Assembly (NCBI GenBank): GCA_964016885.1
Contig: CAXHJY010000254.1
Span: forward strand, 124,001 to 188,000
Length of the DNA stretch: 64,000 nt
Source of the DNA: Eledone cirrhosa
Lineage: Eukaryota
Direction of reading: 5' to 3'
The position numbers were made by a program, and so were the translations under genes. Of the stretch, positions 6,765-43,154 are shown one piece after another. Each line of letters starts with the position of its first letter. The first letter of the stretch is position 1. The notes beneath the pieces were generated by a model that was given only the letters and a program-made list of their open reading frames with translations, did not search any database and had not been told where the DNA came from.

Positions 6765-7739
6765 ATTTAGGAGCAGTTTAGGTATGATACATTTTATTAC
6801 TAATTATATCTAAATGTTTCTTCTCTCTTCATAAGGTATTTTTAACTGTGATACTGGTTCGGTCTAGTTCAACCGAATTGGTCTGTCCCAGTCATTCATT
6901 GAGCAACATCGGTGAAGTTGGCACCCTTAACTCACAGTTGGGTGCGGATGCATTCATGTATATATGTGTGTGTCCGCATGTATCTGTGTGTTTCTAAATA
7001 TATTATATATATATATATATATATGTATATGTATGTATATTGATGTATATTTTATATTTTACTTGTTTATATATATGTGTATATATATATATATATATAT
7101 GTGTGTATATATGTATATGTATATATATATATATGTATATTTTCTTAATATATTTCTTTTTTCTTTTTCTTTTTATTTCTAAATTTATAGATACATTTAT
7201 AAATAGGCAGCTTGCTGACACCGTTAAATACTGACCTCTCCCCCCCCCCACCTACTTTCTGTATCTGGATCTAAATATGTGTGGCAGTGTTTATGTGCGC
7301 GCATTAATGTCCATATGCTTATGATAATAGTATATACACATATATGTGTGTGGGGGTGTGTGTGTGAATGTATGTTCGTGGTTGTGTGTATGTTTATGCG
7401 TATACGCGCGTGTGTGTGTGAATGTACGTATATGTGTGAGTATATGAATGTGTGTATATATTTATTTTTTTATTTTTATATTTATATGCGTATACGTATT
7501 TTATCTGTAGATTATAAACATACAGAGACATTAGCCTTGAATTTTTGTATTTACATACATCTTTTCGGCATGCGTATGCATGTGAACATATATATTTTTA
7601 TGCATATCTGTGAACGAAGTTACTTACATATATACACACACCTAACTGTATAAACTTTTTGTGTTTTCATTGGTCAATTTGAACTCTGTTCCCAAACAGA
7701 CCTGTAATTTTGAATTGTTGTTATTATCAATAAATATAT

Positions 7740-7893
7740 TTCATTATTTCTGAAGACGGCATATATATGTGTTGGTATGTATATTTAATTTTGATAGTTT
7801 GTATAATTTTGTATAATTTTGTACATAGATCTGTTGAATATGCATGCCAATTCTAACACATATATATCCTAGAAACGATCGTTAAATAATGAA
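7740..7893 (+). ncRNA. Type I hammerhead with ~115-nt stem II (family A pLTR)
   Basis: TTCATTATTT-CTGAAGA-[7757-7871 long hairpin]-GAAA-CGATCG-TT-AAATAATGAA. Perfect 10-bp stem I, palindromic stem III, GUU triplet. Confidence 0.82.
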
Positions 7894-8090
7894 CTTTTTT
7901 TGTTTAATATAAGGAACTGTTTCATTGTTTTATTCATTATTTTTTAAATATTTTATCTTGACTCTGTATTCCGTTTATCTTTCACCGAAAGTGATTTTTC
8001 ATTGCATCTCTTCTTTCCATGATATCCGGATTACATTGAGTTCTTCATACGGATTGGACACTACCGTAAACTCTTGGTAGATTTATCTAC

Positions 8091-9198
<1,108 letters not shown>

Positions 9199-9302: not shown

Positions 9303-9480
9303 ATACAATATATAAGCAGTTTTATAAATAAATTTGACGTACCATAAATATTGATCAACTTCCATGTACGAAGTTGGTTTGGTAGTGAGATCTTTAAATA
9401 TTTAGTGTTAAGCACAGTTAGAAAGAAAGACGGAGAAAAGGAAGAAGTGTATGTAAAGAAAAACAGAGAGATAGAGAGAG
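9303..9480 (-). repeat. Fragment of repeat family E
   Basis: Diverged reverse complement of ~50600-50795 (TATTTATGGTACGTCAAA; CCGTCTTTCTTTCTAACTGTGCTTAACACT). Confidence 0.75.
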
Positions 9481-15129: not shown

Positions 15130-15180
15130 AGATTCCTGATGATTTCTAATGAATGAAACAGTTCTAGTCCTGTAGAATCT
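15130..15180 (+). ncRNA. Compact canonical type I hammerhead in a foreign pLTR-like segment (family D)
   Basis: AGATTC-CTGATGA-TTTCTAATGAAT-GAAA-CAGTTCTAGTCCTG-TA-GAATCT. 6-bp stem I, GUA triplet. Confidence 0.85.
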
Positions 15181-15399: not shown

Positions 15400-17721
15400 A
15401 TGGAAAAACACTACCTGGATATGTCACTCAAAAACATACCAATCCAAGGTAGAAAGGAATATTTATTGAGTATGATTAAAAAAACTAATGAATTCATTCG
15501 ACGTGTCAGGTGGAAAACGCTCCACTATGATAGAAGCCGTATGAACTCAACATTAGAAAGTGGTGTAAACAACAAATTCGGTTTTAGGACTTGTAAAAAC
15601 CCACCCACCAACCCACTATTAGATGCATTTGAGCAGGACCTTATGAACTTAATCCTTAAAATTAAATTCAAAGGACGCAACACCAACAGCAAATTACAGA
15701 AAGATATAAAAAAACTACTGGACGACCTTAAAAACACCAAAGGAATTGTAGTAAAAGCGGACAAAACATCAAACCTGTACACTATGGATTGCACTACATA
15801 CAACAACTTCATTCGAAAAGAATTACATAAAAAATATAGAAAAACGAGTGAAGTAACCCTTAAGCACATCAATGATGAGGCATGCGAAATAGTGAAAAAT
15901 CTCGGAATCGAAGATAGGACAGGACCACTCTTACCGGCGGTACCCACCTTCAATCTTAAGGACCACAAGGTAAACTTTGATAATGACCCTAAAATTAGAT
16001 TAATCTGCCCCTCTAAATCAGATATAGGTAAAATAAGCAAATATATCTTAGATAGAATCATCCCCCAAATTAAGGCTAAGGTTAACATTAAACTCTGGGG
16101 GAAGACCCAAGAAGCAATAAGATGGTTTAATAGCATTAGCAATAAGAATAAATCTAAGTTTATCCAGTTTGATATCGATGAATATTACTCATCGATATCA
16201 CCTGAAACTTTGAATAGAGCCATTAAGTTTGCTAAGGATAACTCTGACCTTACAAACGATGAAATTAAGATTATATTAGAAGCTAGGAAAACTATAGTCA
16301 AATTTGAGAACAGTTATTGGGTACGTAAAGATAGACCCTCTAACTTTGACATAACAATGGGCTCTAACGATTCGGCGGAAATAACTGATATTGTGGGGTT
16401 ATTTATCGCCTTTAGACTCCAGGAAAAATTCAGCAATCTCCACGGCGGAATATACCGCGACGATGTTCTCCTCCTAGCTAAAAACCTTAATAACCAAAAA
16501 CTAGAAAAACTACGCAAAGATATAAGAAAACTACTACTCGAAATAGGACTAACTATAACATATGAATACAACCTTAAAGTAGTTAACTTCCTGGATGTCA
16601 CACTCAATTTAAACTCTGGTTTGATTAAACCGTTTCATAAATTGAATGAAAATCTCAAATACATAAATGTTGGGTCTAACCACCCCATCTCTATAATTAA
16701 ATCTATCCCTAAAAATATTTCCCTTAGAATCTCGGGTCTATCTTCTAACATACAAGTATTTAAGGAACACGCCGAGTACTACGATAACGCCCTTAGTAAA
16801 GCAGGCTACCTCAACAAAATAGAGTACATAGATGGGAACAATCAAAACACCCAAAATAAATCCCACATAGGTAGATATAATAACACAACACCAAACCACA
16901 CTTACTACCATAGTATGCACACCAGTAAACCAACAAACAAAACTAATAGAAAGCGATGCAAAGAGTACTTATGGTATAACCCCGAATACAATAGTTCCAT
17001 TAGTACAAATTTACCAGTACTCTTCTTTAAAATAATTAAAAGACATTTTCCCACATCACACAAATACCACAAAATCCTAAACCCTACCACTATAAGACTG
17101 TCATACTCTACAGCGTTAAACCTTGAACAACACATAAAAAAGATCAATACTAGAAGGTTAAACGAAAACACTAAGAACTTAAGTACAAAGAACACAAAAA
17201 AAACAGTAAACAATACACTACAGAACATAAATAAACCACACCTAAGTTCGTCCGCAATACTACTCCAGAGAAAACCCAACGTACACAACTGTAACTGCAC
17301 CTATCCTGACAACTGCCCCCTCGGCAATAACTGCCTGGAAAAAAATATTATTTATAAGTGTACCATTAAATCCGGAGGCAACGAGTGGTATTACGTGGGA
17401 TCAACGGCAACATCGTTTAAATCTCGATTGTATAGGCATTCTTACTCAATAAAACACCAGAGCCAAAGAAATGTAACAACTTTAGCAGAAAAAGCTTGGA
17501 CGGTCAGGGATAGCGATCAAAAGTTTACCCTAAAATGGGAAAAATTAGCTAAAACCCAAAGCTTTTCCAGGAGCCAAAATTTCTGCAAATTGTGTAATCT
17601 TGAGATTTATTACATAATCACACACAAGAAGAAACTGCTGAATAACAGAATTGAACGAACATTATTCTGCCGTCACAGAACTAAAACCCTTTTTTCCCAC
17701 TACAAGCCGAATATTACATAA
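15400..17721 (+). CDS. Penelope-like (Hydra-type) reverse transcriptase-GIY-YIG endonuclease, 773 aa, family B copy 1
   Basis: SLKNIP N-terminus, ADKT, LKDHK, IRLICPSKS. RT motifs QFDIDEYYSSI / FDITMGSNDSAE / GIYRDD / NFLDVT. CNCTYPDNCPLGNNC linker. IIYKC..YYVGST..FKSR endonuclease. Confidence 0.93.
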   Translation: MEKHYLDMSLKNIPIQGRKEYLLSMIKKTNEFIRRVRWKTLHYDRSRMNSTLESGVNNKFGFRTCKNPPTNPLLDAFEQDLMNLILKIKFKGRNTNSKLQKDIKKLLDDLKNTKGIVVKADKTSNLYTMDCTTYNNFIRKELHKKYRKTSEVTLKHINDEACEIVKNLGIEDRTGPLLPAVPTFNLKDHKVNFDNDPKIRLICPSKSDIGKISKYILDRIIPQIKAKVNIKLWGKTQEAIRWFNSISNKNKSKFIQFDIDEYYSSISPETLNRAIKFAKDNSDLTNDEIKIILEARKTIVKFENSYWVRKDRPSNFDITMGSNDSAEITDIVGLFIAFRLQEKFSNLHGGIYRDDVLLLAKNLNNQKLEKLRKDIRKLLLEIGLTITYEYNLKVVNFLDVTLNLNSGLIKPFHKLNENLKYINVGSNHPISIIKSIPKNISLRISGLSSNIQVFKEHAEYYDNALSKAGYLNKIEYIDGNNQNTQNKSHIGRYNNTTPNHTYYHSMHTSKPTNKTNRKRCKEYLWYNPEYNSSISTNLPVLFFKIIKRHFPTSHKYHKILNPTTIRLSYSTALNLEQHIKKINTRRLNENTKNLSTKNTKKTVNNTLQNINKPHLSSSAILLQRKPNVHNCNCTYPDNCPLGNNCLEKNIIYKCTIKSGGNEWYYVGSTATSFKSRLYRHSYSIKHQSQRNVTTLAEKAWTVRDSDQKFTLKWEKLAKTQSFSRSQNFCKLCNLEIYYIITHKKKLLNNRIERTLFCRHRTKTLFSHYKPNIT

Positions 17722-18653: not shown

Positions 18654-18773
18654 TTATTCTGATGAAATGACAGTAAATAATAACATTGAAATATTGAATG
18701 TCTGCATAACTAAAAGTTTGTAGATAGCAGCTGTTTTAGGTTATGTAACTGTTATAGAAACACGTGTCAATAA
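18654..18773 (+). ncRNA. Type I hammerhead with ~91-nt stem II (family B pLTR)
   Basis: TTATT-CTGATGA-[AATGACAGT..GCATAACTAAAA..TTTTAGGTTATGT.ACTGTTATA]-GAAA-CACGTG-TC-AATAA. Confidence 0.75.
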
Positions 18774-18977: not shown

Positions 18978-21299
18978 ATGGAAAAACACTACCTGGATAT
19001 GTCACTCAAAAACATACCAATCCAAGGTAGAAAGGAATATTTATTGAGTATGATTAAAAAAACTAATGAATTCATTCGACGTGTCAGGTGGAAAACGCTC
19101 CACTATGATAGAAGCCGTATGAACTCAACATTAGAAAGTGGTGTAAACAACAAATTCGGTTTTAGGACTTGTAAAAACCCACCCACCAACCCACTATTAG
19201 ATGCATTTGAGCAGGACCTTATGAACTTAATCCTTAAAATTAAATTCAAAGGACGCAACACCAACAGCAAATTACAGAAAGATATAAAAAAACTACTGGA
19301 CGACCTTAAAAACACCAAAGGAATTGTAGTAAAAGCGGACAAAACATCAAACCTGTACACTATGGATTGCACTACATACAACAACTTCATTCGAAAAGAA
19401 TTACATAAAAAATATAGAAAAACGAGTGAAGTAACCCTTAAGCACATCAATGATGAGGCATGCGAAATAGTGAAAAATCTCGGAATCGAAGATAGGACAG
19501 GACCACTCTTACCGGCGGTACCCACCTTCAATCTTAAGGACCACAAGGTAAACTTTGATAATGACCCTAAAATTAGATTAATCTGCCCCTCTAAATCAGA
19601 TATAGGTAAAATAAGCAAATATATCTTAGATAGAATCATCCCCCAAATTAAGGCTAAGGTTAACATTAAACTCTGGGGGAAGACCCAAGAAGCAATAAGA
19701 TGGTTTAATAGCATTAGCAATAAGAATAAATCTAAGTTTATCCAGTTTGATATCGATGAATATTACTCATCGATATCACCTGAAACTTTGAATAGAGCCA
19801 TTAAGTTTGCTAAGGATAACTCTGACCTTACAAACGATGAAATTAAGATTATATTAGAAGCTAGGAAAACTATAGTCAAATTTGAGAACAGTTATTGGGT
19901 ACGTAAAGATAGACCCTCTAACTTTGACATAACAATGGGCTCTAACGATTCGGCGGAAATAACTGATATTGTGGGGTTATTTATCGCCTTTAGACTCCAG
20001 GAAAAATTCAGCAATCTCCACGGCGGAATATACCGCGACGATGTTCTCCTCCTAGCTAAAAACCTTAATAACCAAAAACTAGAAAAACTACGCAAAGATA
20101 TAAGAAAACTACTACTCGAAATAGGACTAACTATAACATATGAATACAACCTTAAAGTAGTTAACTTCCTGGATGTCACACTCAATTTAAACTCTGGTTT
20201 GATTAAACCGTTTCATAAATTGAATGAAAATCTCAAATACATAAATGTTGGGTCTAACCACCCCATCTCTATAATTAAATCTATCCCTAAAAATATTTCC
20301 CTTAGAATCTCGGGTCTATCTTCTAACATACAAGTATTTAAGGAACACGCCGAGTACTACGATAACGCCCTTAGTAAAGCAGGCTACCTCAACAAAATAG
20401 AGTACATAGATGGGAACAATCAAAACACCCAAAATAAATCCCACATAGGTAGATATAATAACACAACACCAAACCACACTTACTACCATAGTATGCACAC
20501 CAGTAAACCAACAAACAAAACTAATAGAAAGCGATGCAAAGAGTACTTATGGTATAACCCCGAATACAATAGTTCCATTAGTACAAATTTACCAGTACTC
20601 TTCTTTAAAATAATTAAAAGACATTTTCCCACATCACACAAATACCACAAAATCCTAAACCCTACCACTATAAGACTGTCATACTCTACAGCGTTAAACC
20701 TTGAACAACACATAAAAAAGATCAATACTAGAAGGTTAAACGAAAACACTAAGAACTTAAGTACAAAGAACACAAAAAAAACAGTAAACAATACACTACA
20801 GAACATAAATAAACCACACCTAAGTTCGTCCGCAATACTACTCCAGAGAAAACCCAACGTACACAACTGTAACTGCACCTATCCTGACAACTGCCCCCTC
20901 GGCAATAACTGCCTGGAAAAAAATATTATTTATAAGTGTACCATTAAATCCGGAGGCAACGAGTGGTATTACGTGGGATCAACGGCAACATCGTTTAAAT
21001 CTCGATTGTATAGGCATTCTTACTCAATAAAACACCAGAGCCAAAGAAATGTAACAACTTTAGCAGAAAAAGCTTGGACGGTCAGGGATAGCGATCAAAA
21101 GTTTACCCTAAAATGGGAAAAATTAGCTAAAACCCAAAGCTTTTCCAGGAGCCAAAATTTCTGCAAATTGTGTAATCTTGAGATTTATTACATAATCACA
21201 CACAAGAAGAAACTGCTGAATAACAGAATTGAACGAACATTATTCTGCCGTCACAGAACTAAAACCCTTTTTTCCCACTACAAGCCGAATATTACATAA
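18978..21299 (+). CDS. PLE RT-GIY-YIG, family B copy 2
   Basis: Translation identical to 15400-17721. Confidence 0.93.
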   Translation: MEKHYLDMSLKNIPIQGRKEYLLSMIKKTNEFIRRVRWKTLHYDRSRMNSTLESGVNNKFGFRTCKNPPTNPLLDAFEQDLMNLILKIKFKGRNTNSKLQKDIKKLLDDLKNTKGIVVKADKTSNLYTMDCTTYNNFIRKELHKKYRKTSEVTLKHINDEACEIVKNLGIEDRTGPLLPAVPTFNLKDHKVNFDNDPKIRLICPSKSDIGKISKYILDRIIPQIKAKVNIKLWGKTQEAIRWFNSISNKNKSKFIQFDIDEYYSSISPETLNRAIKFAKDNSDLTNDEIKIILEARKTIVKFENSYWVRKDRPSNFDITMGSNDSAEITDIVGLFIAFRLQEKFSNLHGGIYRDDVLLLAKNLNNQKLEKLRKDIRKLLLEIGLTITYEYNLKVVNFLDVTLNLNSGLIKPFHKLNENLKYINVGSNHPISIIKSIPKNISLRISGLSSNIQVFKEHAEYYDNALSKAGYLNKIEYIDGNNQNTQNKSHIGRYNNTTPNHTYYHSMHTSKPTNKTNRKRCKEYLWYNPEYNSSISTNLPVLFFKIIKRHFPTSHKYHKILNPTTIRLSYSTALNLEQHIKKINTRRLNENTKNLSTKNTKKTVNNTLQNINKPHLSSSAILLQRKPNVHNCNCTYPDNCPLGNNCLEKNIIYKCTIKSGGNEWYYVGSTATSFKSRLYRHSYSIKHQSQRNVTTLAEKAWTVRDSDQKFTLKWEKLAKTQSFSRSQNFCKLCNLEIYYIITHKKKLLNNRIERTLFCRHRTKTLFSHYKPNIT

Positions 21300-24065: not shown

Positions 24066-27000
24066 AAGGCCGCTCAAACAAGGTTGTAGAAATGCTAGAA
24101 CGTAAGGAGGTTGATGGCTGCTGCATCCAAGAGACCAGGTGGAGGGGCGGTTCTGCTAGATTCATTGTGGGTAAAAAACGATGCTATAAGCTTTTCTGGG
24201 TGGGAAATGACAATGGGCTGGGTGGGGTAGGAATCATGTTAGCAGAAAAATGGGTGGATAAGATAATAGACGTAAATAGAGTAAACGACAGAATAATTAA
24301 AATAAGACTTCTTCTAAATAGAACTACTGTGACGATAATATCTGCGTACGCGCCCCAATCCGGACTGCCTGGTGCTATAAAAGACACTTTCTATGAGACA
24401 CTGATGCTCACTACATCCCAAATAACCGACACTGACTATATAATTATTGCTGGCGACCTAAATGGTCACGTTGGACAACATTGTGACGGCTATGATGAAA
24501 TCCATGGAGGCTATGGGTTTGGTACTAGAAATGAGGAAGGCTCCAGAATCCTGGAATTCTGTGACGCAAATAACCTAACAATCTGTAACACTAACTTCAA
24601 AAAACGAGACAATCACTTGATCACCTACAGATCAGGGGAACATACCAGCCAGGTAGATTATATCCTTACCAGAAGACGTGACAGAGTGACTGTTGTAAAC
24701 ACTAAATCCCTCCCCCATGAAGAATGCACCTCCCAACATAGACTGATAATTAGCGACCTCATAGTCAGGACGAGACGTACTCGACAGCAGAAGAGGACTA
24801 TCCTCAGGAGAAAAATATGGAAGCTAAAGGACCCCACAGCCAGAAATAAATTTCAAAGCATATTACTTGATGCTTTCGACAGTAAGGAAGAGCATTTAGA
24901 GTCGGATATTATAGAGGGACAGTGGGAATTCCTGAAAGCAAACCTGCTGATGGCGGCAGACGAAGTCTGTGGCCGGAGCAGGCCTATAGGCAGGAGGAGA
25001 GTAACATGGTGGTGGAAAAGTAAGGTGGAGGAGTCGATTAAGGCCAAAATGCAGGCTTGGAAAGTATGGCGGGATGGGGGAAGTAGAGAAGACTATCAAG
25101 TGGCCAGGAGGGAAGCTAGGAGACAAGTGCACTTCGCAAGAAGGGAAGCAGAGGAAAGAAAGTTCAAGCATGTTCTACAACGCGAGGACCAAAAACGTGA
25201 GGTGTTCAGGATTGCCAGGTAATGTGTCAAGGAAAACCGTGATATTGTCGGGAAGAAGTGTGTCCGTAATGATGATGGCGTACTTGCCATCACTGACGCG
25301 GATAAGAAGGTAGCTTGGAAGTGTCACTACGAAAGGCTACTAAATGAGGAGAATAAATGGGAGAACGACAGTCTCCCCCACATCGACCCAATAGAGGGAC
25401 CAGCAGTGCAAGTTGAAGGTAGTATAACAAGTAAGGCGATCAAAGACATGAAGACGGGCAAGGCGGCCGGGCCTTCGCAAATAGTTGCCGAAATGCTGAA
25501 AGCATCTGGAACGGTGGGACACAATATGGTCACCCGGATAGTAAACCAAGTCATACAGAATGGGGTCGTTCTGAAGGACTGGCGCAGCAGCATCATCATT
25601 AACTGCTACAAGGGTAAAGGTGATGCCCTAGATAGGGGAAACTATAGAGGCATTAAATTAATTGACCAGGTCATGAAGGTCACAGAAAAAGTAATAGCGC
25701 AACTAATCAGAGAGAGAATTGATCTAGACGAAATGCAGTTCGGGTTCGTGTCAGGTAAAAGTACAACAGACGCTCTTTTCATTGTGCGACAACTACAGGA
25801 GAAGTACCTAGCTAAAAGTAAACCCCTATACTTAGCTTTTGTTGACTTGGAGAAAGCCTTTGACAGAGTACCCCGCTCGATTATCTGGTGGGCCCTTAGA
25901 AAACTAGTTGGTGATGAATGGCTTGTGAGAGCTATACAAGCCATGTATAAAGAAACAGTCAGCAAGGTTAGAATTAACAACGAATATAGTGAAGAGTTTA
26001 GCGTAAAAGTTGGTGTTCATCAGGGTTCCGTCCTTAGCCCACTACTATTTATTATTGCCCTTCAGGCTATAACAGAGGAGTTCAAGACCGGCTGCCCATG
26101 GGAACTCCTATATGCAGATGATCTAACGCTCATAGCTGAATCAATGGCTGAACTAGAGAAGAAATTCCAAACATGGAAGCATGGCCTAGAATCAAATGGC
26201 CTTAAAGTTAACTTGTCTAAGACTAAAGTTCTAGTTTGTAGGAAGGAAAATAGGGCACCGGTCCCATCTGGGAAATGGCCGTGTTCAGTGTGTAGGAAAG
26301 GAGTAGGTAGAAACTCCATTTTATGTCCCAAATGCAAAGTATGGGTACATAAAAGATATAGTGGGATCACAGGTAAGCTAACTAAGAATATAGATTTTAT
26401 ATGTGGTCGGTGCTCTGGTGCAATAAGTAGCAGCAAGTGCCCACAGAATACTAACTCATTCCATTGCACAGATGGTTCTATAGAAATAGTGGACAGCTTC
26501 CGTTACTTGGGTGATATAATCAGCAGTGGGGGAGGGTGCTCTGAAAGTACAGTAGCTAGAATCATAACGGGATGGAAAAAGTTCAGAGAGCTTATACCAC
26601 TATTGGCCGCTAAAGGGTTCTCGCTAAAAATGAAAGGCAGGCTGTATGATGCCTGCATACGAACAGCAATGTTACATGGCAGTGAGACCTGGGCATTGTG
26701 TGCAGAGGATATACGTAGACTGGAGAGAAACGAAGCTTGCATGCTCCGCTGGATGTGTAATAGTAATATACGTGAACGGCAAAGCATAAACGAACGAAGG
26801 GAGAAATTAGAAATAAGAGGGATCAGATGTTGTTTACTCGAGAGAAGGCTACGTTGGTACGGTCACGTGATGCGCATGAAAGACGACAGCTGTATAAAAA
26901 AGTGCAGGGCAATAAAATTAGACGGTAGCCACGGAGTAGGCAGACCCCCAAAAACCTGGGACGACTTGATAAATTCCGACCTCACACACTTACACCTCTC

Positions 27001-27460
27001 CAGGACAAGTCACTGGACCGAGATCTTTGGCGCTACACAGTAATAGAGAAGACCCGCCTTACTTAAGTGCAAAGTGAAACCTACTACAGTCAGTAGGCAC
27101 CTCTAACAAAATACACCCCCGTCCCACTACCCCCACCCCATCCACACCACCCCTTTCAATGTAAAGTTATGTTGGTACCACAACATCCAGCCCGAAACAA
27201 ATGAGGTCGTGTAGGTGTCACGACAAAAAAACACACGGTCCACACTGTAATGTGGCCGTGTAGGTAACACAGTAAAAACCTCCCAGTCCACACTGTAAAT
27301 GTGGTTGGTGTTAGGAAGGGCATCCAGCCGTAGAAAACCCGCCAGACAGTCCTATAAGAGCAAGACAACCACTCTTGCCTCAAGTGGGAAAACTCCCGTC
27401 CAAACCCATGCAAGCGTGGAACATGGACGTTAAGCGAAGATGATGAGGATGAGATGATGA
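24066..27460 (+). mobile_element. RTE-clade LINE, slightly 5'-truncated, with (GAT)n tail
   Basis: APE endonuclease plus RT in one frame. The 3' UTR ends CATGGACGTTAAGCGAAGATGATGAGGATGAGATGATGA. Confidence 0.88.
24092..27043 (+). pseudogene. RTE ORF (APE endonuclease + RT + Cys-rich insert) with a premature TAA at 25220 and a probable frameshift near the end
   Basis: CIQETRW, SAYAPQ, AGDLNGH, QVDYIL, SQHRL (APE). FVDLEKAFD, GVHQGSVLSPLLF, LLYADD (RT). The two track ORFs share one frame. Confidence 0.92.
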
Positions 27461-27543
27461 TATATATACTTATACATACATATATATATATATGTATATA
27501 TACATATATATATATATACACATACATGTATATATATATACAT

Positions 27544-27891
27544 ATCATCATCATTCATCATCATTTCATTTTACGTCCGCTTTTCCCTGCTTGCAAGGGT
27601 GGGACGGGAACTGATTCTGGCTTGATTTCTACAGCTGGATGCCCTTCCTAACACCAACCTCATTTACAGTGAATGCTGGGTGCTTTTTTGCCGTGGCACC
27701 TCCACGACTACTTTGTAGTGGAATGATAGGGACCCAAGTCCCTATCATCTCATTTCTACAGCTGAGTAAACTGGAGCAATGTGAAATAAAGTGTCTTGCT
27801 CAAGGAAACAACACATCACCCGGTCTGAGAATTGAACTCACAACATTTCGATTGCAAGGCCAATGCTCTAACCACTAAGCCATGTGCCTCC
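27544..27891 (-). mobile_element. tRNA-derived SINE with RTE-like 3' tail
   Basis: Minus strand A box TGGCTTAGTGG and B box GAGTTCAATTC. The tail shares GTTGGTGTTAGGAAGGGCATCCAGC with the LINE UTR and ends in (GAT)n. Confidence 0.85.
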
Positions 27892-27927
27892 ATATATATA
27901 TGTATATGTATATACATATATATATAT

Positions 27928-28253
27928 GGAGGCACATGGCTTAGTGGTTAGAGCATTGGCCTTGCAATCGAAAGGTTGTGAGTTCAATTCTCAGACTGGG
28001 TGATGTGTTGTTTCCTTGAACAAGACACTTTATTTCACATTGCTCCAGTTTACTCAGCTGTAGAAATGAGATGATAGGGACTGGTGTCCATATCATTCCA
28101 CTGCAAAGTGGTCGTGCAGGTGCCACGCAAAAAAGCACCCAGCACTCACTGTAAATGAGGTTGGTGTTAGTAAGGGCATCCAGCTGTAGATGTTAAGCCA
28201 GAACCAGTTCCCGTCCCACCCTTGCAAGCAGGGAAAAAGCAGACGTAAAATGA
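27928..28253 (+). mobile_element. tRNA-derived SINE, same family, head-to-head with the previous copy
   Basis: GGAGGCACATGGCTTAGTGGTTAGAGC..GAGTTCAATTCTC..CAGACGTAAAATGA. Slightly diverged reverse complement of 27567-27891. Confidence 0.85.
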
Positions 28254-28525: not shown

Positions 28526-28680
28526 TTCATTATTTAACGATCGTTTCTAGGATATATATGTGTTAGAATTGGTATGCATATTCAACAGATCTATGTACAA
28601 AATTATACAAAATTATACAAATTATCAAGATTAAATATACATACCAAACACATATATACGCCGTCTTCAGAAATAATGAA
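28526..28680 (-). ncRNA. Family A long-stem-II hammerhead
   Basis: Same core, stem I and stem III as 7740-7893. Confidence 0.8.
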
Positions 28681-32967: not shown

Positions 32968-35409
32968 TTAATTAGGTTTATAATATTTAAATGTTTTTTT
33001 TAGTTTATGATTACACGATATAATTAATTCCTGTCGTTTATTTAATAAGATATCCTTAGACTTCATTATTTCAAATAGTTCTTGGGAACATAATCTACAT
33101 TCATTTCTATTATTTTGATAAGGGGTGGCTCTTTTGAGCACACTCCAGGTCAAATCATATTTTATATTCTTATTTTTATAACTATTGATTTTTTCAGCTA
33201 GAGATGTTGTATTAGCCAGTGCAGCATTTTTAAAACTATGCTTGTGGGTATTAAACCTTGTCTTAAAATTGTTAGAGGTAGCTCCTATATATGAGCAAAT
33301 AGAATCTGTAGTTTTAACATTACATTTATAGACTATGTTGTTAACAAGACAATTCCCTTTTAATGGGCAGTTTGCTTTGTTTCTACAGTTACATCCTTTC
33401 GTTAATTCTGTATTTGAGGAGATATTATGGTTAATTTGATGTACTGGTGGTATAGTTATGGTTTTCTTACATTTATATGCATTATATGCACTTATATTTT
33501 GTTTTATGTTATTTGTTGTAGAGTATGAGAATTTAACTGTAGACCTATTTAAGATTTGATGGTATTTGTGGTTTGGCGGGAAGTTTTTCTCAAGGATATA
33601 AAAAAATGTTTTAGCAATATTATCCTTAACTTGTAAATTAAAAGGAGCATTATACCAAGTAACCCGTCTATTACGGTTTCTATGTTGTTTATTATTTTTA
33701 TTATTTTTATAGGTTGTATCGTGATTTTTACTAGGAGGATTAATGTTAATGATCTCACCACAACTATTTTTAGTTATATTTTTAGATTTAGGTGTTTTAT
33801 CCTTTTTATTAGGAGTTTTATTATTAATATTTATTAGAGTTGTATGATGAGTAGTTTTTTGAGAGTTACTATACTTTATATTAGAAGATTTGGTATTTTG
33901 GGGTATAGTGTGGGTGGCATTTAGGTGTGTTCTTTTCATTTGGTGTTTGTTGGTAATATTATGTTGTATGCTTTCAGTATTTTTAGTAGAAGGTATATAC
34001 TCTAATCTATTTTTGTGGCCACTTCTATCTAGAGCTTCGTTATAGAAGGTCGCATTTTTATCAAATACATCTTGGTTAGAAGAAAGGTTAGAAATTCTAA
34101 GTGATATATTATATGCAAGGTTTTTAAGGATAGATTTAGGGTGATTAGATTGTGAGTGTATGTAATGTAAGTTTTGGTTAGGTTTATGGTAAGGTTGGTA
34201 GATACCCGTAGCTAAATCTAAAGTTATATCTAGGAAATTTACTACTTTACTTGTTTTTTCAAAAGTAATATTAAGATTATAATAGTCTTTAAGGAAAGTT
34301 CTAATATGTTTTTTGTTTTTTTCAATTTCTGAAAGGCTAAGGTTGTTAGAAAGAAGAAGACAGTCATCACGATATAAACCACCTTTGAGGTGGGGAAAAG
34401 AGGCATTTATGTTGAAAAGGAGAAAGAGGCCCACAAGATCAGTAATTTGGGCGGAATCACTTGAACCCATAGTAATATCAAAAAGATTACTGTATGTGTT
34501 TCTGGTCCAGTATTCATTCTGAAATTCAATAAGTGTTAGTCTAGCATGTGTAATAATGTTAATGTCATCCAAAGTTAAGTTAGATCTATTTTTAGCAAAT
34601 ATCAATGCTTTGTTCAGGAGTATAGGTGATATAGAAGAATAGTAATTATCTATATCAAATTGTAGGAAAGAAGCAGAAGATTTACACCTAATATTTTTAA
34701 ACCAGTTAATTACCTGGGAGGTGTTTTCCCAGAGTGGTAAAATAACGTGTTTTTTTATTTGTGGGATGACTCTATCTAAAATTTTTTTGCTAATTATTCC
34801 AATATCTGATTTGGAAGGACATATAAGTCTAATAGAAGGATTTGAGTTAAAGTTAGATTTGTGATCTTTCAGGTTGAAGTGTGGTCTTTTCAATGCCAAA
34901 GGTTCAGTTCTATCTTCAATGTTTAGTTTTTTTACTATGTTGTGTGTTTTGTTGTTGATGTTGGTGAGTGACACATTATTAGATTTTTTATAATTTTTTC
35001 TGAGTTCTTTATATATGAACTCGTTATAATGTTCAATGTCCATATGATACAAGTTACCAGTTTTGTCCGAGTGGACATGGATTTTTTTAGACTTTTTTAG
35101 GTCCAATAGGGTAGAATCAAGGTCCTTTTGAAAGACGGATTTATACTTTTTAAATTTGAGGTGTTTAATTAAATTAAAAAGGTCTTTCTCGAAGTCTTCA
35201 AGTAAAAAGTTGTGTGGTGGATTCTTGTAAGTATTGAAATCATACATATATTTCCGATCTGCTTGTTTAGATTTTCTATCGAAGTGGTAGGCTCTCCATC
35301 TAACCCTTCTGATAAAATTATTAGTTTTCTGAATCATAAGGAGTAAGAAGTCATCCTTAGAAGGTATTGGTATGTTTTTTAAGGAGGTTCCTAAATATTG
35401 TTTTTCCAT
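32968..35409 (-). CDS. Penelope-like (Hydra-type) RT-GIY-YIG, ~813 aa from ATG 35409, family A
   Basis: MEKQYLGTSLKNIP aligns with the family B start. [61 protein letters not shown]. The track start at 35430 is a non-ATG codon. Confidence 0.93.
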   Translation of the reverse strand: MEKQYLGTSLKNIPIPSKDDFLLLMIQKTNNFIRRVRWRAYHFDRKSKQADRKYMYDFNTYKNPPHNFLLEDFEKDLFNLIKHLKFKKYKSVFQKDLDSTLLDLKKSKKIHVHSDKTGNLYHMDIEHYNEFIYKELRKNYKKSNNVSLTNINNKTHNIVKKLNIEDRTEPLALKRPHFNLKDHKSNFNSNPSIRLICPSKSDIGIISKKILDRVIPQIKKHVILPLWENTSQVINWFKNIRCKSSASFLQFDIDNYYSSISPILLNKALIFAKNRSNLTLDDINIITHARLTLIEFQNEYWTRNTYSNLFDITMGSSDSAQITDLVGLFLLFNINASFPHLKGGLYRDDCLLLSNNLSLSEIEKNKKHIRTFLKDYYNLNITFEKTSKVVNFLDITLDLATGIYQPYHKPNQNLHYIHSQSNHPKSILKNLAYNISLRISNLSSNQDVFDKNATFYNEALDRSGHKNRLEYIPSTKNTESIQHNITNKHQMKRTHLNATHTIPQNTKSSNIKYSNSQKTTHHTTLININNKTPNKKDKTPKSKNITKNSCGEIININPPSKNHDTTYKNNKNNKQHRNRNRRVTWYNAPFNLQVKDNIAKTFFYILEKNFPPNHKYHQILNRSTVKFSYSTTNNIKQNISAYNAYKCKKTITIPPVHQINHNISSNTELTKGCNCRNKANCPLKGNCLVNNIVYKCNVKTTDSICSYIGATSNNFKTRFNTHKHSFKNAALANTTSLAEKINSYKNKNIKYDLTWSVLKRATPYQNNRNECRLCSQELFEIMKSKDILLNKRQELIISCNHKLKKTFKYYKPN

Positions 35410-35753
35410 TGTGATATGGATAATGGACAATTGAAAGAGCTCAACTAAAAGTATATGGGTTTACAAAATCATACATATATATATGTATATACATAAATAT
35501 AAAATTAATACACACATACAGTACAAAAATACGAATATTTCCGTGAAAATAGGAGCAAAATTATGTAGATAAATCTACCAAGAGTTTACGGTAGTGTCCA
35601 ATCCGTATGAAGAACTCAATGTATTCCGGATATCATGGAAAGAAGAGATGTAATGAAAAACCACTTTCGGTGAAAGATAAACGGTATACAGAGTACAAGA
35701 TAAAATATTAAACAAATAATGAATAAACAATTTCTTATATTAAACAAAAAAAG

Positions 35754-35908
35754 TTCATTATTTAACGATCGTTTCTAGGATATATATGTGTTAGAATTGG
35801 TATGCATATTCAACAGATCTATGTACAAAATTATACAAAATTATACAAATTATCAAGATTAAATATACATACCAAACACATATATACGCCGTCTTCAGAA
35901 ATAATGAA
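35754..35908 (-). ncRNA. Family A long-stem-II hammerhead, upstream of ORF 32968-35409
   Basis: Same motif as 28526-28680. Confidence 0.8.
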
Positions 35909-36562
35909 GTATATTTATTGATAATAACAACAATTCAAAATTTCAGGTCCGTTTGGGAACAAAAATTGACCAATGAAAACACAAAGGGTTAAATGCAGTT
36001 CGGTGTGTGTATATACATGTAAAACCCTTACACATATTTTACAAAAATGTATGTATAAATTGTATACGCATACTAAAAGGATGGATGCGAACACAAAATT
36101 TCAAGGTTAATGTCTCTGTGAGTTATTGACACTTATGAAGTTAAGTATATAAATATATTTTTTCATACTCACACATATCCGTACAATCACACATACACGC
36201 GCGTATATGCATAAATATACACATAACCACGAACGTACAAACACACACACACCCCCACTCACATTTATATATGTGGATATAAAATCATAAGCACATGGAT
36301 ATTAATTCACTCACATAAAACACTGGCATACACATTTTCAGATCAAGATACAGAAATTAGGTGGGAGGGGGGGGGAGGGGTCAGTATTCAACGGTCTGAA
36401 CAGACTGCCTAATATAAATGTATCTATAAACTAAGAAAAATAAAACAAATAAAACATAATAAATAAAACATTAAGGAGGAAAGAATAGAAAGAAGAACAG
36501 AAAAAAGAAAAAAGAAAAAAGAAATATATCAAGAAAATAAATATACACACATACACATACAT

Positions 36563-40213: not shown

Positions 40214-42655
40214 TTAATTAGGTTTATAATATTTAAATGTTTTTTTTAGTTTATGATTACACGATATAATTAATTCCTGTCGTTTATTTAATAAGATATC
40301 CTTAGACTTCATTATTTCAAATAGTTCTTGGGAACATAATCTACATTCATTTCTATTATTTTGATAAGGGGTGGCTCTTTTGAGCACACTCCAGGTCAAA
40401 TCATATTTTATATTCTTATTTTTATAACTATTGATTTTTTCAGCTAGAGATGTTGTATTAGCCAGTGCAGCATTTTTAAAACTATGCTTGTGGGTATTAA
40501 ACCTTGTCTTAAAATTGTTAGAGGTAGCTCCTATATATGAGCAAATAGAATCTTTAGTTTTAACATTACATTTATAGACTATGTTGTTAACAAGACAATT
40601 CCCTTTTAATGGGCAGTTTGCTTTGTTTCTACAGTTACATCCTTTCGTTAATTCTGTATTTGAGGAGATATTATGGTTAATTTGATGTACTGGTGGTATA
40701 GTTATGGTTTTCTTACATTTATATGCATTATATGCACTTATATTTTGTTTTATGTTATTTGTTGTAGAGTATGAGAATTTAACTGTAGACCTATTTAAGA
40801 TTTGATGGTATTTGTGGTTTGGCGGGAAGTTTTTCTCAAGGATATAAAAAATTTTTTTAGCAATATTATCCTTAACTTGTAAATTAAAAGGAGCATTATA
40901 CCAAGTAACCCGTCTATTACGGTTTCTATGTTGTTTATTATTTTTATTATTTTTATAGGTTGTATCGTGATTTTTACTAGGAGGATTAATGTTAATGATC
41001 TCACCACAACTATTTTTAGTTATATTTTTAGATTTAGGTGTTTTATCCTTTTTATTAGGAGTTTTATTATTAATATTTATTAGAGTTGTATGATGAGTAG
41101 TTTTTTGAGAGTTACTATACTTTATATTAGAAGATTTGGTATTTTGGGGTATAGTGTGGGTGGCATTTAGGTGTGTTCTTTTCATTTGGTGTTTGTTGGT
41201 AATATTATGTTGTATGCTTTCAGTATTTTTAGTAGAAGGTATATACTCTAATCTATTTTTGTGGCCACTTCTATCTAGAGCTTCGTTATAGAAGGTCGCA
41301 TTTTTATCAAATACATCTTGGTTAGAAGAAAGGTTAGAAATTCTAAGTGATATATTATATGCAAGGTTTTTAAGGATAGATTTAGGGTGATTAGATTGTG
41401 AGTGTATGTAATGTAAGTTTTGGTTAGGTTTATGGTAAGGTTGGTAGATACCCGTAGCTAAATCTAAAGTTATATCTAGGAAATTTACTACTTTACTTGT
41501 TTTTTCAAAAGTAATATTAAGATTATAATAGTCTTTAAGGAAAGTTCTAATATGTTTTTTGTTTTTTTCAATTTCTGAAAGGCTAAGGTTGTTAGAAAGA
41601 AGAAGACAGTCATCACGATATAAACCACCTTTGAGGTGGGGAAAAGAGGCATTTATGTTGAAAAGGAGAAAGAGGCCCACAAGATCAGTAATTTGGGCGG
41701 AATCACTTGAACCCATAGTAATATCAAAAAGATTACTGTATGTGTTTCTGGTCCAGTATTCATTCTGAAATTCAATAAGTGTTAGTCTAGCATGTGTAAT
41801 AATGTTAATGTCATCCAAAGTTAAGTTAGATCTATTTTTAGCAAATATCAATGCTTTGTTCAGGAGTATAGGTGATATAGAAGAATAGTAATTATCTATA
41901 TCAAATTGTAGGAAAGAAGCAGAAGATTTACACCTAATATTTTTAAACCAGTTAATTACCTGGGAGGTGTTTTCCCAGAGTGGTAAAATAACGTGTTTTT
42001 TTATTTGTGGGATGACTCTATCTAAAATTTTTTTGCTAATTATTCCAATATCTGATTTGGAAGGACATATAAGTCTAATAGAAGGATTTGAGTTAAAGTT
42101 AGATTTGTGATCTTTCAGGTTGAAGTGTGGTCTTTTCAATGCCAAAGGTTCAGTTCTATCTTCAATGTTTAGTTTTTTTACTATGTTGTGTGTTTTGTTG
42201 TTGATGTTGGTGAGTGACACATTATTAGATTTTTTATAATTTTTTCTGAGTTCTTTATATATGAACTCGTTATAATGTTCAATGTCCATATGATACAAGT
42301 TACCAGTTTTGTCCGAGTGGACATGGATTTTTTTAGACTTTTTTAGGTCCAATAGGGTAGAATCAAGGTCCTTTTGAAAGACGGATTTATACTTTTTAAA
42401 TTTGAGGTGTTTAATTAAATTAAAAAGGTCTTTCTCGAAGTCTTCAAGTAAAAAGTTGTGTGGTGGATTCTTGTAAGTATTGAAATCATACATATATTTC
42501 CGATCTGCTTGTTTAGATTTTCTATCGAAGTGGTAGGCTCTCCATCTAACCCTTCTGATAAAATTATTAGTTTTCTGAATCATAAGGAGTAAGAAGTCAT
42601 CCTTAGAAGGTATTGGTATGTTTTTTAAGGAGGTTCCTAAATATTGTTTTTCCAT
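40214..42655 (-). CDS. PLE RT-GIY-YIG, family A second intact copy
   Basis: Differs from the first copy only at AKKIFY/AKTFFY and KTKDS/KTTDS in the track translations. Confidence 0.93.
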   Translation of the reverse strand: MEKQYLGTSLKNIPIPSKDDFLLLMIQKTNNFIRRVRWRAYHFDRKSKQADRKYMYDFNTYKNPPHNFLLEDFEKDLFNLIKHLKFKKYKSVFQKDLDSTLLDLKKSKKIHVHSDKTGNLYHMDIEHYNEFIYKELRKNYKKSNNVSLTNINNKTHNIVKKLNIEDRTEPLALKRPHFNLKDHKSNFNSNPSIRLICPSKSDIGIISKKILDRVIPQIKKHVILPLWENTSQVINWFKNIRCKSSASFLQFDIDNYYSSISPILLNKALIFAKNRSNLTLDDINIITHARLTLIEFQNEYWTRNTYSNLFDITMGSSDSAQITDLVGLFLLFNINASFPHLKGGLYRDDCLLLSNNLSLSEIEKNKKHIRTFLKDYYNLNITFEKTSKVVNFLDITLDLATGIYQPYHKPNQNLHYIHSQSNHPKSILKNLAYNISLRISNLSSNQDVFDKNATFYNEALDRSGHKNRLEYIPSTKNTESIQHNITNKHQMKRTHLNATHTIPQNTKSSNIKYSNSQKTTHHTTLININNKTPNKKDKTPKSKNITKNSCGEIININPPSKNHDTTYKNNKNNKQHRNRNRRVTWYNAPFNLQVKDNIAKKIFYILEKNFPPNHKYHQILNRSTVKFSYSTTNNIKQNISAYNAYKCKKTITIPPVHQINHNISSNTELTKGCNCRNKANCPLKGNCLVNNIVYKCNVKTKDSICSYIGATSNNFKTRFNTHKHSFKNAALANTTSLAEKINSYKNKNIKYDLTWSVLKRATPYQNNRNECRLCSQELFEIMKSKDILLNKRQELIISCNHKLKKTFKYYKPN

Positions 42656-42999: not shown

Positions 43000-43154
43000 T
43001 TCATTATTTAACGATCGTTTCTAGGATATATATGTGTTAGAATTGGTATGCATATTCAACAGATCTATGTACAAAATTATACAAAATTATACAAATTATC
43101 AAGATTAAATATACATACCAAACACATATATACGCCGTCTTCAGAAATAATGAA
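43000..43154 (-). ncRNA. Family A long-stem-II hammerhead
   Basis: Same motif. Confidence 0.8.

Follow-up and report, generated by a model that had tools for sequence, protein, structure and literature searches.

At position 7740 of the window (the whole stretch of 64,000 nucleotides analyzed here) begins a type I hammerhead that belongs to the pLTR of a young Penelope-like retrotransposon (PLE) of the Hydra clade. Its stem II, at ~100 to 116 nt, exceeds everything found among relatives. Comparison of subfamilies in the genome indicated that, judged by sequence conservation, the long stem is more than neutral growth. On balance, we favor a long-stem hammerhead with its pairing kept, which probably cleaves itself slowly or conditionally and whose long stem probably carries signals.

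The hammerhead motif and its host element

As summarized in Table 1, all six copies named in the original prediction were found, and their ten-pair stem I, CUGAAGA, GAAA, CGAUCG and both quoted arm pairs were confirmed in the sequence. The order of CUGANGA, GAAA and NUH is that of a type I hammerhead. Stem II measured 115 nt in the two A1 copies and 116 nt in the four A2 copies. The whole motif folded at −45.2 kcal/mol (z −5.48), a value equaled by 0 of 200 shuffles, and stem II folded alone gave a z of −7.29. Rfam returned no match at E ≤ 10 for positions 7700 to 8060 and none in a gathering-threshold scan of five loci.

Table 1. Positions of the hammerhead copies, their parts and associated features in the window
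Feature	Positions	Strand	Basis or context
A1 hammerhead copy	7740–7893	+	sequence inspection; 3′ end in (TA)n at second copy-end site
A1 hammerhead copy	1062–1215	−	inverted partner of 7740 copy; ends at first site (999)
A2 hammerhead copy	28526–28680	−	3′ pLTR of tandem
A2 hammerhead copy	35754–35908	−	upstream of intact ORF
A2 hammerhead copy	43000–43154	−	upstream of second ORF
A2 hammerhead copy	48187–48341	+	inverted, 5′-truncated arm
AAUAAA, poly(A)-signal-like hexamer	7729–7734	+	just upstream of stem I
Stem I, 5′ strand	7740–7749	+	genomic copies preferentially begin at A7743
Core CUGAAGA	7750–7756	+	UUGA[C/A]AA with U3-A8 in subfamily A7
Stem II hairpin, 115 nt	7757–7871	+	folding, subfamily pairing
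GUAUGU, splice-donor-like hexamer in paired arm	7775–7780	+	GUAAGU in A7
Apical conserved motif, 5′ half (UGAUANUUUGUA)	7792–7803	+	subfamily comparison
Apical conserved motif, 3′ half (UACAUAGAUC)	7822–7831	+	subfamily comparison
GAAA, palindromic stem III (ACGAUCGU, 7875–7882) and predicted cut after U7883	7872–7883	+	
Stem I, 3′ strand	7884–7893	+	sequence
Handle hairpin 1, ACUC/GAGU closing stem, interior ~72 nt	7961–8041	+	just 3′ of first copy-end site (about 7955)
Second copy-end site	8086–8093	+	7740 copy ends here in (TA)n
Handle hairpin 2, GCUC/GAGC closing stem, interior ~108 nt	35439–35556	−	just 3′ of second copy-end site
Intact RT and C-terminal GIY-YIG ORF	32968–35409	−	813 aa from first Met; Hydra-clade motifs
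Second intact ORF of tandem	40214–42655	−	sequence, ORF list
Family B hammerhead, 91-nt stem II of unrelated sequence	18654–18773	+	upstream of Hydra-type ORF (18978–21299)

At the base of stem II, a C.A mismatch occupies the first position (II.1) and a C.C mismatch the fourth (II.4), and the cut triplet is GUU. The R10.1-Y11.1 pair, which is conserved there and not obligatory, is thus absent, with C.A in five subfamilies and U-A in A5. Mismatches at this place are common in Hydra-clade motifs, in published rows as well as in metagenome loci, and natural ribozymes tolerate a mismatch at the stem II base (PMC3088659). The usual tertiary contact between loop I and loop II is unlikely here, because more than 28 pairs separate the core from the tip of stem II. 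Stem III is invariant and forms 2 pairs as a monomer and 8 pairs as a dimer; the expectation that its palindrome favors dimers agrees with computed energies of −10.0 kcal/mol for the 8-bp intermolecular duplex versus +2.4 kcal/mol for the monomer hairpin. The AAUAAA upstream of stem I occurs in 6/6 subfamilies with a variable spacer, and AWUAAA upstream of the relatives' hammerheads shows no enrichment (5 of 39 versus 2.7 expected).

Assignment of the motif to a PLE pLTR was supported. Some 500 nt separate the copies at 35908 and 43154 from the intact 813-aa ORFs downstream of them, and the ORF units stand head to tail with a period of ~7.2 kb, accompanied by an inverted truncated arm. Pfam named no domain in the family A protein, and its motifs were read by eye: RT motifs, a C-terminal GIY-YIG-like region, RWR, DKT, a CxCX5C linker, CxxC and CxH. 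The marks of the Hydra clade are RWK, DKT, the CxCX5C linker, CxxC and CxH (PMC8557442), and this set is present, with RWK in protein P0002 and the remaining residues shown for P0001. A single ORF with RT followed by a C-terminal GIY-YIG (118 homologs), insertion in (TA)n, tandem and inverted pLTRs and a one-ended tail are likewise as in this clade. Hydra-clade hammerheads, as described in PMC8557442, share with family A the type I form, the pLTR location, the RT with C-terminal GIY-YIG, the (TA)n insertion, the extra base after A9 and before GAA, and a GUU or GUA triplet. They differ in unit length, which is typically (though not by definition) <3 kb versus the 7.2 kb of family A, and in a tail of 30 to 40 nt versus 138 nt (PMC8557442).

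All 54 scored genomic protein matches were 98 to 100% identical at full length (50 of them without a stop), and family A is therefore young. The 26-nt 3′ core has 6,816 exact copies in the genome, and its reversed control has none. The 3′ region of the element holds 4 kb of microsatellite, and its leader of 497 nt contains 9 upstream AUGs. A non-LTR retrozyme, made up of short non-coding tandem repeats with one hammerhead each, was considered and rejected, as the copies occur singly, in back-to-back arrangement or as the pLTRs of units that carry an ORF.

Stem II length, pairing and conserved islands

The view that PLE pLTR hammerheads are usually minimal holds for some PLEs and fails for the Hydra clade, whose hammerheads are canonical with 3 to 7 stem II pairs (PMC8557442). 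The 26 published Hydra-clade rows give 3 to 7 pairs and a loop of 3 to 10 nt, in a table derived from a length-limited descriptor (PMC8557442 File S2), and the descriptor that we used allowed a stem II of up to 250 nt. With it, 56 of 77 metagenome loci, taken from the best 80 of 543 stretches, had a hammerhead with a stem II of 10 to 25 nt, and 21 loci had no call; three further long-stem calls were dropped, since they lay inside ORFs or enclosed a short motif. Other hammerhead families at the examined genomic loci had a stem II of 12 to 51 nt. Thus, the ~100 to 116 nt of the six family A subfamilies, compared with 10 to 25 nt in relatives (a four- to tenfold difference), lies outside the range found, because the published, metagenome and genomic families are all shorter. 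Within family A, the stem stays near 100 to 107 nt across five old subfamilies, and variants of 105, 115 and 126 nt reflect steps of the apical loop by 10-nt duplications. Hammerhead searches with limited length miss motifs of this type, and our literature searches, run without subscription papers or Repbase, returned no description of such a long-stem motif or of the twin hairpins described below.

In rodent discontinuous Clec2 hammerheads, the core halves are split by a long insert, as in family A; these hammerheads lie in host 3′ UTRs and have another topology, and their inserts are not described as one covarying hairpin. The Selaginella PLE-X1 motif also has an extended stem II, of about 50 nt and marked non-canonical, but it is half as long and belongs to EN-less plant elements, and its table reports no covariation or conserved islands (PMC8557442 File S2). 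Minimal or D. virilis-type PLE hammerheads, according to PMC4209133, are like family A in a palindromic stem III suited to dimers, and the overlap of hammerhead and intron boundary in D. virilis may be a further likeness; they differ in a helix II of 6 to 8 pairs and in a conserved G10.1-C11.1 that family A lacks, and in family A the donor-like hexamer is located inside stem II.

Family B in the same window has a protein 43% identical to that of family A (ORFs at 15400–17721 and 18978–21299), a stem II of 88 to 91 nt, a GUC triplet and a 119-nt tail, with 2,670 pattern matches in the genome. Shorter hammerheads were also seen at 50792–50857 (related to 9303–9480, 31-nt stem II) and at 15130–15180 (12-nt stem II), and several copies of the family with a 30- to 31-nt stem II carry a C.C mismatch near the base.

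The pairing-preserving differences between A1 and A2 that had been put forward are real, but they are one-sided wobble changes between two sequence types and weak on their own. We collected the older subfamilies A3 to A7 by pattern searches of the genome and, once these were included, the predicted covariation of stems I and II was present. Among six subfamily majorities, 11 of 21 core-anchored positions showed two-sided change and 110 of 126 cells were paired; the fixed mismatches II.1 and II.4 made up 11 of the 16 unpaired cells. A MAFFT alignment of 32 of the 98 distinct copies (A7 excluded, A4 misaligned in the inner helix) had 93.9% of its cells paired versus 25 to 56% in slid registers, and 8 of its 30 pairs had two-sided change. 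Its 63 two-sided cells compare with 22.5 after shuffling (0/500), and two of five shuffle measures were not exceeded (two-sided pairs, 131/500; extra pair types, 113/500); the sequences are related, and six subfamilies represent few independent events.

Subfamily A7 has its own stem I, its own stem II base and the altered core in 9/9 copies having the 5′ half. The C3-G8 tertiary pair is C-G in five subfamilies and U-A in A7, and the same U3-A8 swap is known from Schistosoma PLE hammerheads (PMC4209133). Apart from this swap, N7 varies among A, G and C and the cut base between U and A, and the other core letters are fixed. Across the three helices, compensatory change was found in stems I and II, with stem III unchanged throughout. 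Deviant copies ending at the cut site in (TA)n made up 5 of the first 100 of 118, a count without a control. The compensatory changes and the U3-A8 swap suggest that selection for a working ribozyme is likely.

Inside the long stem, two islands stand out, and the predicted extra module was found in the form of this near-invariant hexamer and apical motif. Among A1, A4 and A7, identity was 92 to 100% for the apical motif and 83 to 100% for the hexamer GUA(U/A)GU, in comparison with 22 to 47% for the basal arm, mid arm, apical loop and 3′ arm. GUAUGU occurs in 90 of 98 distinct copies, and 7 of 9 A7 copies have GUAAGU with a compensating change in the partner. Both halves of the apical motif were matched within one mismatch in 94 of 103 copies, and the loop that they close ranges from 6 to 26 nt, growing by 10-nt duplications. 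It is these islands amid sequence turnover that argue for more than neutral growth. The apical motif might act in RNA, as a protein-binding site, or in DNA, as part of an internal promoter, two modes of action that look alike because the motif is invariant.

The hexamer at 7775 resembles the splice-donor consensus, GUAUGU and GUAAGU being common donor hexamers, and AG precedes GUAUGU in most A3, A5 and A6 copies. The match to the donor consensus was not significant versus shuffles (p about 0.07 to 0.08), and the genome held no spliced copy for one predicted junction. Sequencing reads that look like DNA showed no intron junction over 35150–36050, a result that carries no weight for or against splicing. 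TYGAGC before the ATG was rejected as an acceptor, since this sequence forms one half of handle hairpin 2 and the preceding AG is unconserved in relatives. PLE leaders often hold an intron starting in the pLTR, as do the 5′ UTRs of Penelope and Chlamys-3 (PMC8557442), and in the D. virilis PLE an intron end abuts the hammerhead (PMC4209133). Short-stem hammerhead families (L001, L025, L063, L073 and L104) have a donor-like GUA(A/U), mostly after AG, which overlaps the 5′ end of stem I.

Ends of genomic copies and the twin hairpins

We examined where genomic copies begin and end, with pLTR positions counted from 7740 as +1. In a hand count of the first 100 of 9,454 matches, 25 copies had their 5′ end at 7742–7743 (+3/+4), about 4 began in the 14 nt upstream, 5 were SINE insertions and about 66 extended upstream. 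By script, in a non-random sample of 99 distinct copies, 27 began at +4, including 8 SINE junctions, a further 16 began at +5 to +8 and 48 internally; the SINE junctions (5/100; 8/27) were excluded from the 5′-end counts. The 5′ ends at 7884 that had been anticipated did not appear among genomic copies, as 0 of the first 100 of 7,716 matches started at the cut site. A7743 sits in an initiator-like YCA context, and it is a likely transcription start. Since copies begin at 7743 and, among those first 100 matches, never at the cut site, uncut RNA is the likely RT template. An extra G before 7743, as expected from cap copying, was seen at only 6 of 19 junctions. Family B departs from this pattern: its 5′ ends are scattered, none of the first 100 matches starting within 13 nt of stem I and 5 of 33 ends falling at −34 to −44.

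Some sequences adjoining the 5′ end had other origins. Poly(A) before 7743 in L112 was rejected as an mRNA tail, being the slipped T-run of an inverted arm. A tRNA-type SINE, flanked by target duplications and with an ATT tail and more than 152,000 copies, accounts for a sequence that recurs before 7743; a special link to the motif was rejected, since this SINE enters ATTAT sites generally and 0 of the first 100 lay at the motif. The SINE entered A3 copies at +4 in several independent events, in some of them two times (L088, L090, L095, L116, L121, L122, L123 and L127), perhaps a mild hotspot. At L002, L019, L144 and L159, the +4 junctions hold short tandem re-copies of the element's first 7 to 16 nt, which look like RT slipping back at the template end.

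Folding of RNA starting at +4 predicted a stem I probability of 0.00 to 0.20 in 9/9 A1 to A6 copies, with a core-trapping helix dominant in 6 of the 9, and such a loss of stem I in these subfamilies would, according to the model, spare the 5′ copy. Three A7 copies kept stem I at 0.92 to 0.98, and a general off-switch in RNA starting at 7743 was therefore rejected.

At the other end, family A copies terminate at +209 or +347, running into (TA)n, usually with one site per arm of an inverted pair, and family B copies at +159 or +278. Both family A sites lie 5 to 7 nt before their respective hairpin (Table 1). The two hairpins are 4 to 10 times longer than in relatives, and the expanded forms still fold (z −2.3 and −2.9). 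Between hammerhead and ATG, relatives carry the motif GCUCY-(8–19 nt)-UYGAGCACU, present at least once in 40 of 44 testable relative loci and twice in 25 (0 in same-size ORF controls); the closing pair varies among G-C, U-A (L247) and A-U (family A hairpin 1). In 5 of 12 relatives with both pLTRs, the sequence gives way to (TA)n within a few bases of the 5′ side of one hairpin; a sixth contig stops at the hairpin, and the others continue or end elsewhere. Because copy ends adjoin them and they are conserved clade-wide, the twin hairpins, rather than stem II, are likely the RT handles, and the clade-wide hairpin points to a likely RT start signal. Twin GCUC/GAGC hairpins upstream of the ATG were seen in the Hydra-clade leaders L182 to L258. 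At 58119–58170, a 50-nt insertion that corresponds to the final portion of the pLTR tail directly follows a truncated 3′ region and ends in (TA)n.

The anole Poseidon element PAc resembles family A in having two internal copy-start sites downstream of the hammerhead and an uncut RNA template; these two RT start sites define its tail, and its hammerhead cuts only with protein (PMC11167929). PAc belongs to another clade and its hammerhead overlaps the ORF start, unlike family A, and no counterpart of the twin GCUC/GAGC hairpins is described in the available part of PMC11167929.

Proposed mechanism and rival explanations

In the mechanism that we favor, the hammerhead would be the first part transcribed, because the RNA would start at A7743. 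The element's RT would bind the twin downstream hairpins, start just 5′ of either one and copy uncut RNA to its 5′ end, which would account for the abundance of solo and back-to-back copies of 205 and 345 nt. Cutting would require a dimer or the element's protein, and its main effect would be to trim transcripts that read through a tandem, at the pLTR lying downstream. The islands would most likely be expression signals (internal promoter, splicing or protein binding) that lie inside stem II because they had to sit just after the start site, and the pairing would keep the core foldable around them. Part of the stem II length is likely neutral, since all three leader hairpins grew and the loop shows 10-nt duplications. 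The role of the hammerhead in endonuclease-bearing PLEs has been stated to be unclear (PMC8557442), and the sole PLE studied in vitro does not need cleavage (PMC11167929).

It is possible, though doubtful, that the long stem acts as a fate switch, burying a 5′ splice site together with a protein-bound apical module, so that the RNA is either spliced to mRNA, which splits the hammerhead, or keeps its pairing and serves as the template of RT or the substrate of cleavage. Splicing, packaging of uncut template and self-cleavage would then be mutually exclusive, with twin telomerase-like hairpins setting the RT start clade-wide. The persistence of the hexamer, including the compensated GUAAGU of A7, the 9 upstream AUGs and the pLTR introns of Penelope and Chlamys-3 (PMC8557442) and intron end of D. 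virilis (PMC4209133) are in keeping with this; against it stand the non-significant donor score, the missing spliced copy of the one predicted junction, the candidate acceptor context that belongs to handle hairpin 2, and the fact that the hexamer is a common word in a TA/TG-rich genome. We consider it unlikely that slippage and duplication alone lengthened all hairpins, with selection confined to the pairing beside the core. Two islands at 83 to 100% identity amid surroundings at 22 to 47%, and a length constant near 100 to 107 nt in five old subfamilies, speak against such growth, even though all three leader hairpins expanded in family A, the 3′ region is 4 kb of microsatellite, and stem II varies from 12 to 51 nt in other families to 88 to 91 nt of unrelated sequence in family B.

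The proposal that stem II itself is the RT-binding handle appears quite improbable, since in both families, A and B, as well as in distant short-stem relatives, copy ends adjoin the twin hairpins 55 to 200 nt downstream. The apical motif is conserved like a protein site, and the protein-binding region of the anole element was placed within the first 172 nt of its ORF, an ORF that begins at stem II, but a 5′ truncation into the anole hammerhead left insertion working (both PMC11167929). Very unlikely is a dead ribozyme whose fold is kept for another reason. The C.A first stem II pair, the GUU triplet, the 2-pair monomer stem III, the predicted core-trapping helix that competes with stem I and the lack of copies starting at the cut site among the first 100 of 7,716 would suit it; the U3-A8 swap in A7 and a core otherwise fixed, with N7 and the cut base varying within its tolerance, would not, and Hydra hammerheads in the literature commonly have such a mismatch as well as GUU, the latter in 10 of 26 rows (PMC8557442 File S2). 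A functional small-RNA precursor, also suggested originally, is extremely unlikely: the hairpin is long and nearly perfect over about 28 basal pairs, but its arms are low-complexity and replaced between subfamilies (29 to 47% identical between old ones), the window's Rfam miRNA matches fall far below gathering scores on TA/TG repeats, and none among the matches listed lies on the stem II hairpin.

For the preferred long-stem hammerhead with embedded signals, the family, which is young, comprises six subfamilies and numbers thousands of copies, offers natural rescue mutations in the stems and core, fixed copy ends and conserved islands, and each part is therefore testable.

Elsewhere in the window, 27464–28250 holds an inverted SINE-like repeat pair centered on (TA)n at 27890–27930, and the perfect 92-nt hairpin that this pair forms draws sub-threshold miRNA matches. 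A LINE-like element occupies 24068–27043, with an AP endonuclease ORF and an RT ORF split by one stop.
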